A DNA stretch of 64,000 bases from Candidatus Uhrbacteria bacterium. GTDB lineage: Bacteria; Patescibacteriota; Patescibacteriia; JACPHY01. Below the pieces are notes generated by a model. It was not told the DNA's origin and made no database searches. It worked only from the letters and a program-made list of their open reading frames with translations. Below, piece after piece: positions 35,777 through 43,156 of the stretch. The translations under genes and the position numbers were made by a program. The stretch covers positions 8,170-72,169 of the forward strand of contig JACPHY010000003.1 in assembly GCA_016188355.1 (NCBI GenBank). The letters are read 5' to 3'. Each line of letters starts with the position of its first letter. Positions within the stretch are counted from its first letter, which is position 1.

Positions 35777-35902
35777 GCATCGCTACCGCCCACACGACCG
35801 TGCGTCGTGTGGGCGGTGCGTCTCCGCGCATCCGGTGCATGATATGCTGTGCGCAACCGCTGCTCGTGTCCGGTTGCTCAATTGGACGGACGGCGCGCAC
35901 CT

Positions 35903-36886
35903 ATGCACGACCTCGTGACGATCGGGGATATCAAGCTCGACACGTTCATCGTTCTGCCCGATGCGCATCTCCAGTGCAATTTTCGACAGGCAGACCGCGC
36001 CTGCTATCTCTGTCTCGAACATGGTGCCAAGATTCCTGTGGAGGATTTCGAACCACAAATCGCCGGATCCGCGGCAAATGTGGCGGTGGGCATGCGCCGC
36101 CTGGGATTCACCACCGCCATCGTGGCGATCCTCGGCAAGGACGCAACCCGAGCACTCGCGAAAGCCCGGCTCGCGGAGGAACGTGTGGATGCGCGGTATC
36201 TGAAAACCCTGAAACACGAACGTTCGAGCTACTCCATCGTCATCACATATAAAGGCGAACGCACGATGCTCACCGCGCATCGTCCCCATCACTACCATCT
36301 CCCTGCGCTCCGACCGTTCAAATGTCTCTATCTTTCGGAAATGGGCAAAGATTTTGAGGAGCTCTTCCACGATGCAACGGCGCTCGTGCGGCGACGCGGT
36401 GCGAAGCTCGCCATCAACCCCGGCACGATCCAACTCCAAGCAGGGCAACGGAAACTCCTCCCCACCCTCAAGGCAACGGACGTGCTCTTTGTGAACAAAG
36501 AAGAGGGCGAACAACTCCTCAACGGACGACGCGGGGAGGGCATCGATATCCGCCACACGATCACTGCACTCTGGAAACTCGGACCACAAGTGGTCGTACT
36601 CACTGATGGGAAGCGCGGTGCCTATGCCTTCGATGGTGGCGAGGTCTGGTATCTCCCCCCGTTTCCCACGACGGTCGTGGAGATGACCGGTGCGGGCGAT
36701 AGCTTCGCCACCGGATTCCTCGCCGCGCGGATGCATGGCAAGCCACTTGCCGAGTGCCTCCGCTGGGGCGCTGCCAATGCCACATCCGTCATTGGCATGG
36801 TTGGCCCGCAACCGGGACTCCTCACGAAAACCACCATGACCAAGATGCTCCGCGCACACCCCGCGGTCACCGCACGCGCCATATAA
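35903..36886 (+). CDS. PfkB-family carbohydrate/nucleoside kinase (ribokinase-like)
   Basis: 'GSAANVAVGMRRLGF', 'VLTDGKRGAYAF' and 'TGAGDSFATGFLAARMHG' (the DTxGAGD anion hole). Confidence 0.8.
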   Translation: MHDLVTIGDIKLDTFIVLPDAHLQCNFRQADRACYLCLEHGAKIPVEDFEPQIAGSAANVAVGMRRLGFTTAIVAILGKDATRALAKARLAEERVDARYLKTLKHERSSYSIVITYKGERTMLTAHRPHHYHLPALRPFKCLYLSEMGKDFEELFHDATALVRRRGAKLAINPGTIQLQAGQRKLLPTLKATDVLFVNKEEGEQLLNGRRGEGIDIRHTITALWKLGPQVVVLTDGKRGAYAFDGGEVWYLPPFPTTVVEMTGAGDSFATGFLAARMHGKPLAECLRWGAANATSVIGMVGPQPGLLTKTTMTKMLRAHPAVTARAI

Positions 36887-36933
36887 CGCGACCGCAAAAT
36901 ATCCCTGGATGCAGCTGCATCCAGGGATATGCG

Positions 36934-37533
36934 TTACCGGCGTTCGTCGCTTCCGCCCCCACTGCGCGCGGCGCCGACCCATGGGTCATCAACCGCGAAC
37001 GGATGATCCGGCCAGATACGCGCGCTCGCCACATCTGCGCAATGGCAACACGCCGCGAGTGGACTCATGTGCCGCTGATGCTCGGAGTACACCCCAATCT
37101 CTCCCTCGACGTACCGAAGCGCATCCTCCTGCTCCGCGGTGAGAATGATGCCAAACGCACGAATCTGCTCGATCCGGAACGCATGCTGCGCCGGTTTCGG
37201 CTGCAGGTCTGAGGTACGCTCGTACGTGCCATCTGCATGCCGAACAATCGCCCATGGCTTCTCGATGTCATGGAGGAAGCTGACGAGCAAGGCGTCTGAC
37301 AGGGCGTAGGGCTGCCGTCGCAGCGCGGAAAGGAGATGATAAAATTGGATCACCAGATTCATGCATTCCCGGATGTGATCCAAGTATCCGCCGGGCCAGG
37401 CCTGATGATTGTGTGTGGAGCCAGGCGCACCCGCATGATGGGCGCGCAGATGCTCGAGGAGCCGTCGGCATGCGGTACGGTTTGGCTCGGATATCATCTC
37501 GAGCATGGCGTCGATGGTGAAGTACGTCTGCAT
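36934..37533 (-). CDS. HD-domain-like metal-dependent phosphohydrolase (hypothetical)
   Basis: 'HNHQAWPGGYLDHIRECMNL...LLVSFLHDIEK' gives the H..HD...D pattern. Start taken at 'MQTYFTIDAML'. Confidence 0.45.
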   Translation of the reverse strand: MQTYFTIDAMLEMISEPNRTACRRLLEHLRAHHAGAPGSTHNHQAWPGGYLDHIRECMNLVIQFYHLLSALRRQPYALSDALLVSFLHDIEKPWAIVRHADGTYERTSDLQPKPAQHAFRIEQIRAFGIILTAEQEDALRYVEGEIGVYSEHQRHMSPLAACCHCADVASARIWPDHPFAVDDPWVGAARSGGGSDERR

Positions 37534-37672
37534 GGTGCCTCCGTTGGGAATGTGCGCGCCCAGCGTACCGATCGGTACGCCCCTCGTCAAGACGTGCGAT
37601 CGAATGATACGGTGACACCATCAGAATCCCTCTATGATGCGCCGCGCTCCACGATCCGCTGTGCACGTCGTC

Positions 37673-37894
37673 ATGGAAGTGATCGGTTGGCTGGGGGCGC
37701 TGGCAGTGTTGATTGCCTACGCGCTCGTGAGCCTCCAGTGGATCACGTCCGCCGATCCCCGATTCCCTATGCTGAATGGCCTTGGTGCGCTGGGACTCGC
37801 GGCACATGCCATCACGGCGCGCGATTATCCGATCGTGGCATTAAATAGTATTTGGCTCGTGATCGCCCTCATCGCACTGTTCTCATCCTACTGA
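37673..37894 (+). CDS. small membrane protein (73 aa)
   Basis: 'MEVIGWLGALAVLIAYALVSLQWI...LGALGLAAHAITARDYPIVALNSIWLVIALIALF', two TM helices. Immediately upstream of fba. Confidence 0.35.
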   Translation: MEVIGWLGALAVLIAYALVSLQWITSADPRFPMLNGLGALGLAAHAITARDYPIVALNSIWLVIALIALFSSY

Positions 37895-37895
37895 T

Positions 37896-38837
37896 ATGCT
37901 CGGCAATCCTCGCACGCTCCTCGCGAAGGCACTCCGTGGTCGATATGCGATCGGCGCGTTCAACGTCAACAATCTCGAGATCCTCCAAGGCGTGATCCGC
38001 GCTGCCGAAGCGCAACGCGCGCCGGTAATCGTGCAAACGAGTGAGGGTGCGATCGAGTACGCGGGCATGACGGAACTACTCGCCATGATGCACACTGCGG
38101 CGAAGCGAGCGTCGGTTCCCGTGGTGATCCATCTCGATCACGGAAAAAATCTCGATGTGGTACGGGCGGCGATTCGGTCCGGATATACGAGCGTCATGTT
38201 CGATGGGTCGTCGCTCCCGTACGCGGAGAATGTCGCGCGCACAAGGCAGGTGGTCCGCTGGGCACACGCGAATGGCGTCGCAGTGGAGGCAGAACTGGGC
38301 GCGATCAAGGGCGTGGAGGATTTCGTCTCCGTCGCCGAGCGCGATGCGGCGTTCACGAATCCCGAACAGGCCCTCGACTTCGTGACGCGCACGCAGTGCG
38401 ATTCGCTTGCGGTGTCCATTGGGACCGCGCATGGCGCGCATAAGGCGACCGGCGACATCACGCTCGACGTCGCCCGCCTGCGCCGCATCCATGCGCTCCT
38501 CCCGAAGACGCCGCTCGTCCTCCATGGGGCATCATCCGTTCCGGACGATCTCGTCGGCGCCACGCACCTCTACTGCACGATGCTCGGCGACTGTCATCGC
38601 CTCGAAGGGGCGAAGGGCATCCCCGACGCACAGACGCGGCTCGCCATCCGACACGGCGTCACGAAAATTAACACCGATACCGATCTCCGCATCGCGTTCA
38701 CCGCAGCGGTCCGCGAGACGCTCATCGAGGACACCACCGTATTTGATCCCCGCAAACTCCTCGGTCCCGCACGCGATGCCGTGCAGACGATCGCAGAGCG
38801 ACGCATTGCGGTGTTCAGGAGCAAATGGAAAACATAA
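37896..38837 (+). CDS. fba: fructose-bisphosphate aldolase, class II
   Basis: 'YAIGAFNVNNLE', 'PVIVQTSEGA', 'VVIHLDHG', 'VEAELGAIKG' and 'LAVSIGTAHG' are class II FBA motifs. Confidence 0.9.
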   Translation: MLGNPRTLLAKALRGRYAIGAFNVNNLEILQGVIRAAEAQRAPVIVQTSEGAIEYAGMTELLAMMHTAAKRASVPVVIHLDHGKNLDVVRAAIRSGYTSVMFDGSSLPYAENVARTRQVVRWAHANGVAVEAELGAIKGVEDFVSVAERDAAFTNPEQALDFVTRTQCDSLAVSIGTAHGAHKATGDITLDVARLRRIHALLPKTPLVLHGASSVPDDLVGATHLYCTMLGDCHRLEGAKGIPDAQTRLAIRHGVTKINTDTDLRIAFTAAVRETLIEDTTVFDPRKLLGPARDAVQTIAERRIAVFRSKWKT

Positions 38838-38910: not shown

Positions 38911-39270
38911 CTATACTCGCGCGCCCTCAAGTCGAGTCACCCGACGCACAAGATCGTTCTGTTCCTTCTCCAAACGTTGACACTTATCGCGAAGCGCGAC
39001 TAGTTCAATGTCCAACGTCTTATGTAACGTCACAAAACCATCCACGCCCGCGGCGAGGTCATCGATGCGTGTATTGGTCGCGTCGATCCGATCATTCATC
39101 ACACCAATGCGGTCACCCACCGCATCAATACGAAGATTGGTCGCGTCGATCCGATCTCCCAGGTTCTTCGTTACCTCGACAAGCTGTTGATCAATCTTTG
39201 TGAACTGTTGATCAATCTTTGTGAAGTGACCCTGGAGAAATTCGATGAGTTCTTGCTGCTGGTCAGCCAT
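38911..39270 (-). CDS. small coiled-coil repeat protein (119 aa), paralog family
   Basis: 'MADQQQELIEFLQGHFTKIDQQFTKIDQQL...DRIDATNLRIDAVGDRIGVMNDRIDATNTRIDDL' with 11-residue repeats. N-terminus similar to ORFs 15218 and 15520. Confidence 0.5.
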   Translation of the reverse strand: MADQQQELIEFLQGHFTKIDQQFTKIDQQLVEVTKNLGDRIDATNLRIDAVGDRIGVMNDRIDATNTRIDDLAAGVDGFVTLHKTLDIELVALRDKCQRLEKEQNDLVRRVTRLEGARV

Positions 39271-39310: not shown

Positions 39311-40051
39311 CTAAAGACCTTGGCGCAGGACAGTGAACATCATCTTCATCGCAGCGGCAAGTGGCGCACTTGTAAGCACGGTGCCGAAAATGGGATTGGT
39401 GGTCACAATGAGCGCAATGGAATCGTTCCAGATGAGGAGATCGGTAGGAGGGTCGCCGTACTCCTTTGGGAGCACGCGAAAATCGTACATACCCTTCACC
39501 GCATTTCGCATGGCATCCGCAGCACCGTATTCTTGCGAGGCGTGAGTGAGGATGTCGCGAAAGAGGATGCCGCGCTCACGGACGAGCTCGACATACCGCG
39601 GGAAAAACTTCGGGTAGAGCTGCTCGAGGTGCGCGGTAGAGCCAATCGCATACACCTCCTTCGCGGTGAGCGTTTGGAGGTAGATCTCCTGAACCTGCTC
39701 GGGACCATCGTAGAATTGAATTTTTGGTTTGTTTTTCTGCGTCATGTACCGTCCGCGCAAATCCGGCAGGATGCGCGCGATCGTTTCGCGTTTGCGGTCG
39801 AGGGAGCGGAGCAGTGCCTCGGGATCTGAAGCGAGGTACGCTTTCCGCTTCCCGTTCCGCTGCTCCTCAATGAGCTTCGCCTCCTGGAGTGAGCGCAGAA
39901 TACCGTAGCAATGCGTCCGGGCAATACCAGTCCCCTTCGCAATCTGCGGCGGCGTCGAAAGGCCCTGCTCCAGCAGATACAGGTAGACCGCAATTTCCGA
40001 TGCAGGGAGTCCAAGTTCCTTGAGTGGGGGAGGGAAATCCATATTGGTCAT
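39311..40051 (-). CDS. TrmB-family sugar-responsive transcriptional regulator
   Basis: N-terminal wHTH 'LGLPASEIAVYLYLLEQGLSTPPQIAKGTGIARTHCYGILRSLQEAKLIE' plus a C-terminal TrmB sugar-binding-like domain. Flanked by sugar kinases. Confidence 0.7.
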   Translation of the reverse strand: MTNMDFPPPLKELGLPASEIAVYLYLLEQGLSTPPQIAKGTGIARTHCYGILRSLQEAKLIEEQRNGKRKAYLASDPEALLRSLDRKRETIARILPDLRGRYMTQKNKPKIQFYDGPEQVQEIYLQTLTAKEVYAIGSTAHLEQLYPKFFPRYVELVRERGILFRDILTHASQEYGAADAMRNAVKGMYDFRVLPKEYGDPPTDLLIWNDSIALIVTTNPIFGTVLTSAPLAAAMKMMFTVLRQGL

Positions 40052-40227
40052 TTTTTATTGTACCATTTTTTTGTGTATATGAAAACTATTTCTCATATTT
40101 GGCCAGAATAAGAATCATTGGCAATTGACCAAATTGCGATTTCTCGGTATGCTGGAATGTCGATGATCGAGGAATGAGCCTCGCCCACCGGCACCGAACT
40201 TTCACCACCAACGGAAGGAAAGCAGCC

Positions 40228-41046
40228 ATGAAGATTCTCGTGATCGACGACACGCGCACGAACCTCGATGCCGCGAAGCAGGTCCTCCCCGAGCACGAAC
40301 TGACGCTCGTCACGGACTACGATCGCGCGTACAAGCTCCTTGAGCGGCCGAAGGCGAACTACGACGCAGTGCAAGAGGAGCTCAAGCGTCGTGGGTTCCG
40401 GAATGAGTACGATCGGGACGCGAGCAAGCAGGAGCGCGATGCCACGCGAGTGGAGCGGAGCCGGCTCGAGGTCGAACTCTGCCCGCCTCCACCGTTCGAT
40501 GCGGTGCTCTGCGACCTCCTCATGCCGGCGGGGCGGACGACCCAGGGACCGAAGGGCGAACGGTATGTCGGGCAGGAGATGCCGGTCGGGTGGGCGCTGG
40601 CGCTCATGGCAGTGCTCCAGGGCGCGAAGCACGTCGCGGTGGTCACGAACCTGAACCACCACGATCATCCCGCCGCGGCCATGCTCGACCGCCTCTGCAG
40701 TGGCCCGTTCCACGTCGGCGAGCCGCATCCCGTGAAGCTCCACATCAACGGGGCGCCAGTCGACTTCGTGAACGATGCGCCGATGGTCCCAGTTGAGGGA
40801 ACGACGTGCGCCGACTGTGGCGGATCCGGAACGAAGGCGGAGAAGGACTGCTGGCTCTGCAACGGGAGCGGCCGCAACGAGCACCTCGACAAAGAATGCC
40901 ACCCTTGCAAGGGCAGTGGGCGCGAGGTACCGACGTGCTACTCCTGCCGTGGCTCGGGAAAGGTGCTGGGCAAGGACTGGAGCAAGGTCCTCGCTCGACT
41001 CCTCGGCACCGAGACGCCGCTCGCCTCCGAGGACCATGACGCCTGA
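40228..41046 (+). CDS. response-regulator receiver domain fused to a DnaJ-type CxxCxGxG zinc-finger repeat domain
   Basis: 'MKILVIDDTRTNLDAAKQVL...FDAVLCDLLMPAG' gives the receiver fold with the phospho-acceptor Asp in 'LCDLLMP'. C-terminus 'CADCGGSGTKAEKDCWLCNGSGRNEHLDKECHPCKGSGREVPTCYSCRGSGKV' has four CxxCxGSG units. Start at ATG 40228. Confidence 0.65.
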   Translation: MKILVIDDTRTNLDAAKQVLPEHELTLVTDYDRAYKLLERPKANYDAVQEELKRRGFRNEYDRDASKQERDATRVERSRLEVELCPPPPFDAVLCDLLMPAGRTTQGPKGERYVGQEMPVGWALALMAVLQGAKHVAVVTNLNHHDHPAAAMLDRLCSGPFHVGEPHPVKLHINGAPVDFVNDAPMVPVEGTTCADCGGSGTKAEKDCWLCNGSGRNEHLDKECHPCKGSGREVPTCYSCRGSGKVLGKDWSKVLARLLGTETPLASEDHDA

Positions 41047-41152
41047 AACGCGGCACCGTTCCCATCCGGCGCACCGACAGGATTGCTCGTGACGAACCGC
41101 TGACCAGGAGGTCGGCGGTTCTTTTCTATTCCATGGTAGAGTGGAGGCGCAT

Positions 41153-42148
41153 ATGCACGACATCATCACCATTGGTTCTGCGACGGAGGACGTTTTCCTG
41201 CGATCGTCCGCATGGGAGGTCCGGGAAGATGCGGACTCCCCCACGGGGCTCGATCAGTGCCTTCCGCTGGGGGGGAAAATTCCCATTGATGAACTCCAGA
41301 TCACCACGGGTGGCGGCGCCACGAATGCGGCGGTCACCTTCGCACGCCTCGGACAGCTCCGCACCGCGTGCGTGTGCCGCATTGGCGCGACGGACACGAG
41401 CGGGCGGGCGATCGTCGCCGCGCTGCGCGAGGCGCGCATCGCCACCCCATTCGTCCAATCGGACGCCAAGCTCCGCACGGGCTTCTCCCTCATCCTCCTC
41501 TCGGGCAGCGGGGAACGGACGATCCTCACCCACCGCGGCGCATCCCATGCGATTGCGCCCGCACGGATTCCGTGGCCGCGGCTGCGCGCCCACTGGTTCT
41601 ACATCACGTCGCTCGCTGGCAACCGCACGCTCCTCCGCCGCATCCTGTCACACGCGGAGCGCATCGGCGCGCAGGTGGCATGGAATCCTGGCAACGACGA
41701 ACTCGCGTGGGGGTGGGATACACTCGCGCCGCTCGTCCGTCGGTGCGCGGTGATCAATATGAATCGCGAGGAGGCGCTCGTGGCGACGCGTTGTGCTGCG
41801 GACGATCTCACCGGAATGCTCACCACCCTCCACGCCCACGCACCACATGCCATGCGCATTGCGCTCCTCACGGATGGCAAACAGGGCGCGTACGCATTCG
41901 ACGGCGCACGCACCTGGCACATCCCTTCCCGCAACATCCCGGCCATCAACACCACCGGCGCCGGCGACGCGTTTGGTTCCGCCTTCGTGCTCGGCCGCAT
42001 CCACGGTTGGGACATCCCGGACGCGCTCCGCTTGGGCCTAGCGAACGCCGAAGGCGTCATCACGCACATGGGGGCGAAAGTGGGCATTCTCCGAAAACTC
42101 CCCAGCCGCCACGCGCTCCAACGATACGAAGTAGCAGCGTACGCATAA
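41153..42148 (+). CDS. PfkB-family sugar kinase (second copy)
   Basis: 'ITTGGGATNAAVTFARLG', 'LLTDGKQGAYAF' and 'NTTGAGDAFGSAFVLG'. Confidence 0.8.
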   Translation: MHDIITIGSATEDVFLRSSAWEVREDADSPTGLDQCLPLGGKIPIDELQITTGGGATNAAVTFARLGQLRTACVCRIGATDTSGRAIVAALREARIATPFVQSDAKLRTGFSLILLSGSGERTILTHRGASHAIAPARIPWPRLRAHWFYITSLAGNRTLLRRILSHAERIGAQVAWNPGNDELAWGWDTLAPLVRRCAVINMNREEALVATRCAADDLTGMLTTLHAHAPHAMRIALLTDGKQGAYAFDGARTWHIPSRNIPAINTTGAGDAFGSAFVLGRIHGWDIPDALRLGLANAEGVITHMGAKVGILRKLPSRHALQRYEVAAYA

Positions 42149-42151
42149 CCG

Positions 42152-43156
42152 ATGCATGGTATGGCGACCATCTTCGTCACGCGCCGCATCCCTGATGCGG
42201 GGGTCAAGCTCCTCACGGAACATGGGCATCAGGTGATTCTCGGACGCGCGGATCGCGCGCTCATCCACGAAGAGCTCCTCGATGCGGTACGTGCACATCA
42301 ACCGGAAGCGCTCCTCTGCCTCCTCACCGATCGCATCGACGACGCCGTATTTGCCGCCGGCAGTCCGCATCTCCGCATGGTCGCAAACTACGCTGCGGGA
42401 TTTGATAATATCGACCGCGCCGCCGCCGCGAGCCGTGGCGTTTTCGTGACCAACACCCCCGACGTGCTGACGGATGCGGTCGCCGAGTATACCCTCGCAC
42501 TCATCCTCGCGCTCGTGCGTCGCGTGTGCGAAGCGGATCGATATGCGAAGTCCGGTCGCTACCGCGGATGGGATCCGCTCCTCCTCCTCGGTGGAACGCT
42601 CCAAGGGAAAACCCTCGGCGTGGTAGGTCTGGGCCGCATCGGCCGCAGTGTTGCGGAGCGCTGCGCGCGTGGACTCGGCATGCGCATCCGCTATCACAGC
42701 ACCAAAACGGATGCCGCATTCGAGCAGCAGCTCGGCGCGCAATTTCGCGCGCTCGACGATCTCCTCGCTGAATCCGATATCATCAGCCTGCACGTCCCAC
42801 TCACCCTGGACACCTATCATCTCATTAATGCTGCCCGCCTCGCGCGCATACGCCCGACCGCCTATCTCGTGAACACCGCGCGGGGACCGGTCGTCGATGA
42901 ATCAGCGCTTATTAATGCCCTCGAACGGGGGCACCTCGCCGGCGCAGCGCTCGATGTATTCGAATGCGAACCATCCCTCGCCTGCAGCGTCGACGATCAC
43001 CTCAAACTAAAGGTGCTCCCGAACGTGATTCTCACCCCGCACATCGCGTCTGCGACCACTGAAGCGCGCCAAGCCATGTCCCGCGTCGCCGCCGAGAACA
43101 TTCTCGCCGTCTTGGAGGGTCGCGCACCACCCAATCTCGTTCCCATCGCCCCATAA
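42152..43156 (+). CDS. D-isomer-specific 2-hydroxyacid dehydrogenase (glyoxylate/hydroxypyruvate reductase-like)
   Basis: NAD-binding 'LGVVGLGRIGRSVAERC'. Catalytic 'NTARGPVVDESAL...GAALDVFECEP' and 'LTPHIASATTEAR'. Confidence 0.85.
   Translation: MHGMATIFVTRRIPDAGVKLLTEHGHQVILGRADRALIHEELLDAVRAHQPEALLCLLTDRIDDAVFAAGSPHLRMVANYAAGFDNIDRAAAASRGVFVTNTPDVLTDAVAEYTLALILALVRRVCEADRYAKSGRYRGWDPLLLLGGTLQGKTLGVVGLGRIGRSVAERCARGLGMRIRYHSTKTDAAFEQQLGAQFRALDDLLAESDIISLHVPLTLDTYHLINAARLARIRPTAYLVNTARGPVVDESALINALERGHLAGAALDVFECEPSLACSVDDHLKLKVLPNVILTPHIASATTEARQAMSRVAAENILAVLEGRAPPNLVPIAP

Follow-up and report, generated by a model that had tools for sequence, protein, structure and literature searches.

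A Receiver Protein with an Inserted DnaJ-Type Cysteine-Rich Module Encoded Divergently from a TrmB-Like Regulator in Candidatus Uhrbacteria

The 64,000-nucleotide stretch of Candidatus Uhrbacteria DNA analyzed here (the window, 64 kb) contains an intact open reading frame (ORF) of 272 codons at 40228-41046 on the forward strand, which encodes a receiver protein carrying an inserted zinc module. The 272-residue product is identical to hypothetical protein HYV74_01605 of Candidatus Uhrbacteria bacterium, and the source of the window is therefore a member of the Patescibacteria, or candidate phyla radiation (CPR). The protein belongs to a large and uncharacterized family that is almost confined to the ultrasmall Patescibacteria and whose sole conserved gene neighbor encodes a TrmB-like regulator. 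We tentatively propose, with somewhat less than even confidence, that it is a stand-alone atypical response regulator that probably works together with the TrmB-like regulator and whose zinc hairpin is a protein-binding surface controlled by the state of the receiver.

The initial annotation of the window had described a CheY-like receiver with the phospho-acceptor aspartate in the motif LCDLLMP, and this assignment was confirmed by alignment and structure prediction. The family was aligned with six classical receivers, whose sequences were entered by hand, using hhalign; a probability of 97% and an E value of about 1e-10 were obtained, and D7/D8, D96, and T140 were placed on D12/D13, D57, and T87 of CheY, respectively. 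The AlphaFold2 (AF2) model of the window protein has a predicted local distance difference test score (pLDDT) of 94.3 and a predicted TM-score (pTM) of 0.87. The (βα)5 flavodoxin-like fold is borne out by this model, by that of the minimal family member P0039 (162 residues, pLDDT 96.8), and by the Foldseek search with the latter. Almost all of the top 50 Foldseek matches of P0039 are receiver (REC) domains, with a probability of 1.0, a best E value of 9e-4, and target TM-scores (TMt) of 0.5-0.72. The alignments cover the whole 162 residues, as for 3h5i (E 9e-4, TMt 0.67) and 6tne (TMt 0.72). With the full window protein, no Foldseek match in the PDB was found at E ≤ 1e-3, and the best-looking matches were REC domains with probabilities of 0.9-0.99 and E > 1e-3. 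Matches to Pfam Response_reg (PF00072) were obtained for 52 of 120 family members at E ≤ 0.01, the best at 1.5e-7.

The β1-α1-β2-α2 portion of the receiver spans residues 1-40 (40228..40347, +) and includes the acidic pair D7 and D8 and the conserved α1 residues A16, Q18, and H23. It is followed, between α2 and β3, by a variable two-helix insertion (residues 41-88; 40348..40491, +), which was delimited using the alignment and the AF2 secondary structure and is missing from the minimal family members P0039, P0009, and P0042. The most conserved core (residues 89-156; 40492..40695, +) comprises β3, a loop, α3, β4 with T140, the NHHxHP motif, and α4. The codon for acceptor D96 is located at 40513-40515 (+), and D96 is followed by a conserved β3-α3 loop of approximately 20 residues. 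The NHHxHP loop after β4 (residues 143-148; 40654-40671, +) is invariant in the family alignment. Across the 120 aligned members, D96, M99, P100, G121, A128, H144, H145, H147, and P148 are invariant, and D7, D8, Q18, H23, E117, T140, K249, and W251 are at least 90% conserved. The family signature is MKILVIDD ... DLLMPAG-(conserved ~20-residue loop)-QEMPVG ... VAVVTDxNHHxHPASAMLD ... GKDWxxVL.

At the C-terminus, a short strand (residues 247-249) ends at K249 and leads through W251 into the terminal helix at residues 251-259 (40960..41007, +), with the K-D-W motif at least 90% conserved. The C-terminal half of the protein is not alignable to receivers by sequence; neither hhalign nor Pfam searches with spliced constructs succeeded. 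K249, which closes the short strand before the last helix, may be the counterpart of the receiver lysine.

Four CxxCxGSG repeats form a DnaJ-like cysteine-rich domain (CRD) module at residues 194-244 (40807..40959, +), where the pLDDT is 93-98. The repeats are CADCGGSG (residues 194-201), CWLCNGSG (208-215), CHPCKGSG (224-231), and CYSCRGSG (237-244). The Pfam model DnaJ_CXXCXGXG (PF00684) matches with an E value of 1.5e-5 and 25.6 bits, under its gathering score of 32.7, and the DnaJ equivalog models of NCBIfam match the Cys-rich stretch alone, far under their cut-offs. No match to the J-domain (PF00226) or to DnaJ_C was found in the Pfam and NCBIfam scans of the window protein. The earlier description of a DnaJ-type Cys-rich module lacking a J-domain therefore stands, with the PF00684 match below gathering. 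Judged by its sequence, the protein is not a type I DnaJ/Hsp40 chaperone. When the Cys-rich segment was searched against PDB sequences, the only matches were 1exk (E. coli DnaJ CRD), 2ctt (human DNAJA3 CRD), and 3lcz (anti-TRAP), each with an E value of about 0.004. No meaningful matches for the window protein were found in defense-system and phage libraries.

The module shares four CxxCxGxG repeats with the DnaJ CRD (PF00684; 1exk), and the DnaJ CRDs are among its best PDB sequence matches. The window protein differs from DnaJ in having no J-domain, glycine/phenylalanine (G/F) region, or DnaJ C-terminal domains, and its module is embedded in another domain. The repeat starts are separated by 14, 16, and 13 residues, which is more compact than the spacing of about 17, 22, and 14 residues in DnaJ. 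The anti-TRAP protein (RtpA, PF15777; 3lcz) likewise carries a DnaJ-type CxxCxGxG zinc motif without a J-domain, and the spacing in the common two-CxxC form of the family equals that of anti-TRAP. Anti-TRAP differs as a 53-residue oligomer with one zinc site and no receiver, and its target TRAP is absent here. The match is weak (E 0.0089 in Pfam and E 0.0045 in the PDB search), and the window protein scores 16.4 bits against a threshold of 32 for PF15777 and 21.5 bits against 65 for NF058604.

The initial annotation had placed an N-terminal receiver ahead of a C-terminal output domain, and this arrangement has to be revised. The minimal member P0039 has neither the two-helix insertion nor the Cys-rich segment, yet its C-terminus reads ...GKNWGRVLEVLLEN. 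In its model, α4 is followed by strands, by a short strand that closes on the conserved Lys, and by the final helix. In the window protein, a small β-meander follows α4 (residues 168-189; 40729..40794, +; DSSP of the AF2 models), the zinc module comes next, and the fold is then completed by K249-D-W251 and the helix at 251-259. Since Cys-free members keep the KDW motif and the terminal helix, the β-meander and zinc module are inserted within the C-terminal part of the receiver. In the predicted structures, the zinc module is thus a lineage-variable insertion inside the receiver fold and not an appended C-terminal output domain.

The family was sized with an exhaustive profile search, in which clusters were counted at 50% identity. 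The search returned 1170 clusters at E ≤ 1e-3; tightening the cut-off to 1e-10 and 1e-30 left 878 and 273, respectively. The source annotations of the family proteins are "hypothetical" or "CheY-like chemotaxis protein". Two segments are variable in the family, the two-helix insertion at residues 41-88 and the Cys-rich segment. When CxxC motifs after HHxHP were counted in 258 family proteins, 74 had none, 10 had one, 88 had two, 43 had three, and 24 had four. Four perfect CxxCxGxG repeats occur in 3 of the 258, the window protein and its two closest relatives. The architecture had been called rare, which holds for this four-repeat form; it does not hold for the family itself, as the 878 clusters indicate. 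DnaJ CRD matches were obtained for 29 of 120 members at E ≤ 0.01, with the window protein as the most DnaJ-like of them. The outer CxxC motifs, the first and the last, are approximately 90% conserved in the family, and the inner two are confined to the subclade of the window protein. This outer/inner pattern would fit two predicted zinc sites paired 1+4 and 2+3, as in the V-shaped DnaJ hairpin, and, equally, two tandem anti-TRAP-like units.

The two closest relatives, P0002 and P0003, are 67-68% identical to the window protein, come from independent assemblies, and carry the same four repeats. An assembly or frameshift fusion artifact, which the initial annotation had raised as a refuting outcome, was ruled out by 255 homologues (E ≤ 1e-3), these two among them, that cover approximately 95% of the protein. 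No fusions to helix-turn-helix domains were found among the longer family members in the Rosetta-stone search.

Two further forms of the family were encountered (loci of the context sample are designated L). Short Cys-free paralogues of approximately 150 residues keep DLLMPAE, NHHHHP, and KDW and are found downstream of the main copy at a distance of 0.4-1.6 kb in several loci (L011:7250-7714, L025:6123-6584, L031:5773-6237, and L039:13-462). Relatives labeled Saccharibacteria have an extra N-terminal domain of approximately 150 residues fused to the core. The added domain resembles a receiver that lacks the acidic residues. These N-terminally extended relatives were found at L037:180-1319, L038:4620-5459, L040:4557-5432, L043:4521-5435, L044:4632-5435, and L045:4473-5351, together with a paralogue at L001:9429-10211. 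They are without the zinc module and without a TrmB neighbor, and in the L037-L045 set HHDDP replaces HHxHP.

The divergent TrmB regulator reported in the initial annotation proved to be the conserved partner of the family. The gene, at 39311..40051 on the reverse strand, encodes a TrmB/TrmBL2-like winged-helix regulator of 246 residues that matches PF01978 with an E value of 3e-13 and 49.8 bits, over the gathering score of 25.6. A profile of 23 TrmB neighbors (positions 7-248) aligns with residues 5-262 of TrmBL2 (5bpd) at E 5.5e-13. TrmBL2 is the TrmB type without the sugar-binding subdomain. Genomic context was sampled at 45 loci, drawn from three context look-ups and 40 GTDB species-representative genomes. 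When all adjacent ORFs were clustered, the TrmB-like regulator was the sole conserved neighbor, at 31 of 42 non-duplicate loci. Of 34 typical loci, 17 have it directly upstream in divergent orientation, and 23 have it upstream and divergent within approximately 1 kb. These loci span many CPR classes, including Uhr-, Falkow-, Wolfe-, Nomura-, Kerfeld-, Moran-, and Doudnabacteria and Paceibacterota; a few records bear non-CPR names (labels as recorded). The gene next to the receiver gene is the only TrmB-like gene in the whole 64-kb window. A locus from Candidatus Kerfeldbacteria (L021:2840-10572) contains six same-strand TrmB-like paralogues within approximately 8 kb flanking the receiver-family gene.

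The window protein is similar to the CheY-like single-domain regulators (PF00072) in its (βα)5 fold, the acidic pair after β1, the D-x-x-M-P aspartate after β3, and the Thr after β4. Like them, it stands alone and has no DNA-binding domain, and its output is therefore expected to proceed through the binding of a partner. The earlier suggestion of a protein-protein output rather than DNA binding is reasonable in this light, as no DNA-binding domain is recognizable. The window protein departs from the CheY-like regulators in its sub-threshold Pfam score, the conserved β3-α3 loop of approximately 20 residues, the invariant NHHxHP loop after β4, K-D-W in place of K-P, the lack of an evident aromatic switch residue, and the lack of a linked kinase gene. 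The family departs from them in two lineage-variable insertions, a helical pair after α2 and the β-meander plus zinc hairpin before the last helix. The regulator encoded next to it has the TrmB winged helix-turn-helix and aligns with TrmBL2 over its full length, but it is bacterial (CPR) and not archaeal. In the searchable literature, no account of a receiver plus DnaJ-CRD architecture was found, and none of a receiver-TrmB pairing or of TrmB in CPR bacteria.

The analysis establishes the fold, the conserved residues, where the module is inserted, how large the family is, and the synteny; phosphorylation, zinc binding, which protein is the partner, and which way control runs are inferred. The receiver core retains the residues needed for Mg2+ binding and phosphoryl acceptance (D7/D8, D96, T140, and probably K249). 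A zinc hairpin of the DnaJ/anti-TRAP type would project from the C-terminal α4-β5-α5 region. The α4-β5-α5 face is the surface that changes shape on receiver activation. Since the hairpin emerges from the region that moves, it appears well placed to serve as a state-dependent binding surface. Activation at D96, by a non-adjacent donor or a small phosphodonor, would reposition the hairpin and thereby switch binding of a partner protein. On the grounds of synteny, the likeliest partner would be the divergently encoded TrmBL2-like winged-helix regulator, itself without a sensor. Together, the two proteins could then act as a response regulator divided between two genes, one for the sensing and one for the DNA-binding polypeptide. 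The conserved α1, the long β3-α3 loop, and the His-rich β4-α4 loop around the acceptor site suggest a conserved docking partner or ligand. A functional precedent is anti-TRAP, in which the same zinc motif binds and inhibits a regulator.

Several observations weigh against this proposal. The Response_reg match of the window protein is sub-threshold (E 0.12, 13 bits against a gathering score of 30.2) and covers the first half of the domain only; with the insertions removed the score rises to 21 bits, still for the first half only. K249 is followed by D-W and not by the usual Pro, and an aromatic switch residue is not evident. Unusually many invariant polar residues surround the active site (Q18, H23, E117, H144, H145, and H147), which suggests chemistry or docking beyond that of ordinary receivers. 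The initial annotation had noted that no sensor kinase gene is adjacent; consistent with this, no histidine kinase or histidine phosphotransfer (Hpt) motif was found in the 64-kb window or the 42 loci with regular expression searches only. Adjacency to TrmB holds with or without the zinc module, so it does not tie the module to TrmB. The adjacent TrmB genes are not one clade; a dedicated TrmB subfamily was considered and dropped, as the neighbor-joining tree scatters the adjacent genes among paralogues and is uninformative. The synteny could simply reflect regulation of the receiver gene by the TrmB-like protein.

The main rival, which we consider rather doubtful, is a pseudo-receiver sensor that is not phosphorylated. 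In this reading, the His triad of NHHxHP, possibly with the Cys4 sites, would serve to bind a transition metal or to sense redox state or pH, and the protein would itself be the sensor and relay that state to a partner, for example the TrmB-like regulator. The residues just named bear on this directly, since H144, H145, H147, and P148 are invariant in the 120 sequences and Q18, H23, and E117 are conserved, compared with approximately five positions in ordinary receivers. The conserved loop of approximately 20 residues after D96 may cover the site, K-D-W takes the place of K-P, and the failure to find a kinase nearby points the same way. PMC8262869 describes DnaJ-type zinc centers as redox-active, which would also suit a sensor. 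On the other side, the catalytic DD, D, and T are all kept under strong constraint, which is unexpected if phosphorylation had been lost; the third His is dispensable, given the HHDDP of the Saccharibacteria-type relatives; and the zinc module is missing from approximately 30% of family members. A related idea, somewhat improbable in our estimation, is a widespread, kinase-independent, Patescibacteria-specific module in which the receiver subunit would sense a metal, redox state, or small molecule and switch DNA binding by the TrmB-like protein. The signal would be received through the pocket formed by the invariant His triad and acidic residues, and through the Cys4 zinc hairpin where present.

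Roles in nucleic-acid binding or as a chaperone are less likely than the pseudo-receiver sensor. Zinc ribbons and knuckles often bind nucleic acids, and the protein might be a complete response regulator in which the zinc hairpin binds DNA or RNA and the TrmB-like neighbor merely controls expression from the shared promoter region. The divergent layout is typical of local regulation by a regulator of its neighboring target, and the Cys-rich segment has weak matches to antitermination protein Q-like families (phrog_127, E 0.043; 7ubj, E 0.74). These matches are at chance level, however. The module is reduced or missing in many members that retain the rest of the protein and the TrmB neighbor, and its best sequence relatives, the DnaJ CRD and anti-TRAP, bind proteins; this explanation is therefore unlikely. 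A chaperone or thiol-oxidoreductase-like function is very unlikely; in this case the zinc module would hold or remodel clients, like the plastid DnaJ-CRD proteins BSD2, LQY1, and PSA2, which have no J-domain, and the receiver would do no more than gate the activity. The module does align with the whole DnaJ CRD (residues 192-247 with positions 142-207 of NF008035, E 0.0012), and weak BSD2_CRD matches occur in two family members. CRD chaperones without a J-domain exist, according to PMC5818400 and PMC7662858, and provide a precedent. Most family members, however, have one CxxC pair or none, and with four perfect repeats in only 3 of 258, a full CRD cannot be required for the conserved function. 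No chaperone gene context was found at the loci, with trigger factor near one locus only. We retain the atypical response regulator with a protein-binding hairpin as the working proposal.

The start codon at 40228 (MKILVIDD) was preferred over an alternative upstream ATG at 40174, judged unlikely, because all homologues begin at MKILVIDD and a Shine-Dalgarno sequence, GGAAGGA, is located at 40213-40219 (+). An antisense ORF of 383 codons at 40093-41244 overlaps the receiver gene and is the usual byproduct of high G+C. The receiver and TrmB-like genes are separated by an AT-rich intergenic region of 176 bp (40052..40227) with divergent promoter-like sites. A σ70-like promoter site, TTGACC-17-TATGCT, is located upstream of the receiver gene at 40125-40153 (+). 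An intrinsic terminator at 41094..41131 (+), with a 12-bp stem (41094-41121) followed by a T-run, lies between the receiver gene and the downstream gene for a PfkB-family kinase. With its own promoter-like site and a strong terminator, the receiver gene forms a monocistronic unit, apart from the PfkB gene.

Regulatory elements were also sought in the intergenic regions and leaders. A shared operator was not found across the TrmB/receiver intergenic regions compared; recurrent TGTCAA/TTGACA inverted repeats were considered as candidates and are mostly two divergent -35 boxes. Rfam gave no matches in the window intergenic region or in the 5' leaders of family genes, and the predicted fold of the window leader is no better than that of shuffled sequences (z -0.79). 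Ahead of the start codon, at a distance of 17-65 nt, the motif CTTT[CGA]A is found in 11 of 28 family loci compared with 15% of control genes, with a p value of 0.0016 that must be read in light of the post hoc choice of motif. It is present in the window leader (40156-40227) and in those of L002, L007, L009, L011, L015, L019, L021, L032, L033, and L035. In the window leader, CUUUC pairs with GGAAAG of the Shine-Dalgarno region and might sequester the ribosome-binding site. In six family loci, a small hairpin of the form CCTCGGGG-N-CTGGGG abuts a GGAG Shine-Dalgarno sequence (L011:4925-5003, L012:4925-5003, L014:4925-5003, L015:1033-1111, L025:4925-5003, and L031:4530-4608). Ahead of it lies a second hairpin, with arms that vary by locus (TGCCA/TGGCA, TGGCA/TGCCA, and TGCGAA/TTCGCA). 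The CCTCGGGG hairpin shows little covariation, with a compensatory change in 2 of 11 pairs among six partly related sequences.

The adjacent PfkB kinase of the initial annotation is indeed present downstream, beyond the terminator, but it is not conserved as a neighbor. Genes of sugar metabolism flank the receiver/TrmB pair in the window at 35849-38837 and 41153-43156 and include two PfkB-family kinases, a class II fructose-bisphosphate aldolase, and a D-2-hydroxyacid dehydrogenase; this neighborhood is not conserved in the other loci. A link to PfkB or sugar metabolism was rejected, as PfkB, the aldolase, and the dehydrogenase are not conserved neighbors elsewhere and the terminator separates PfkB from the receiver gene. 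An ORF of 218 residues at 36934-37590 (-) has no Pfam matches and carries an HD-like FLHDIEKPW motif. Between the aldolase and TrmB genes, an ORF of 119 residues at 38911-39270 (-) is coiled-coil-like, with repeated RIDATN(L/T)RID and FTKIDQQ units. In a 263-kb contig (L001:1-4136), the family gene adjoins phage-like genes for an SPP1_Dit distal tail protein and a Peptidase_M23 protein, which suggests a prophage border in that genome only.

Regulation in the Patescibacteria is essentially unexplored, and a 2024 perspective (PMC11665869) describes the mechanisms of cell-cycle regulation in these bacteria as ones that "remain virtually unknown". The gene described here opens the way to a receiver family that is large, strongly conserved, and without annotation; the family has a conserved partner regulator, and the surroundings of its active site are unusual. 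For two-component signaling, it presents an output element built into the switching surface of the receiver itself rather than added as a domain, in a receiver protein that apparently works without a linked kinase. The small and soluble-looking gene pair makes the hypothesis directly testable in vitro. If true, a kinase-independent receiver/TrmB module would rank among the main systems by which these reduced genomes control transcription.

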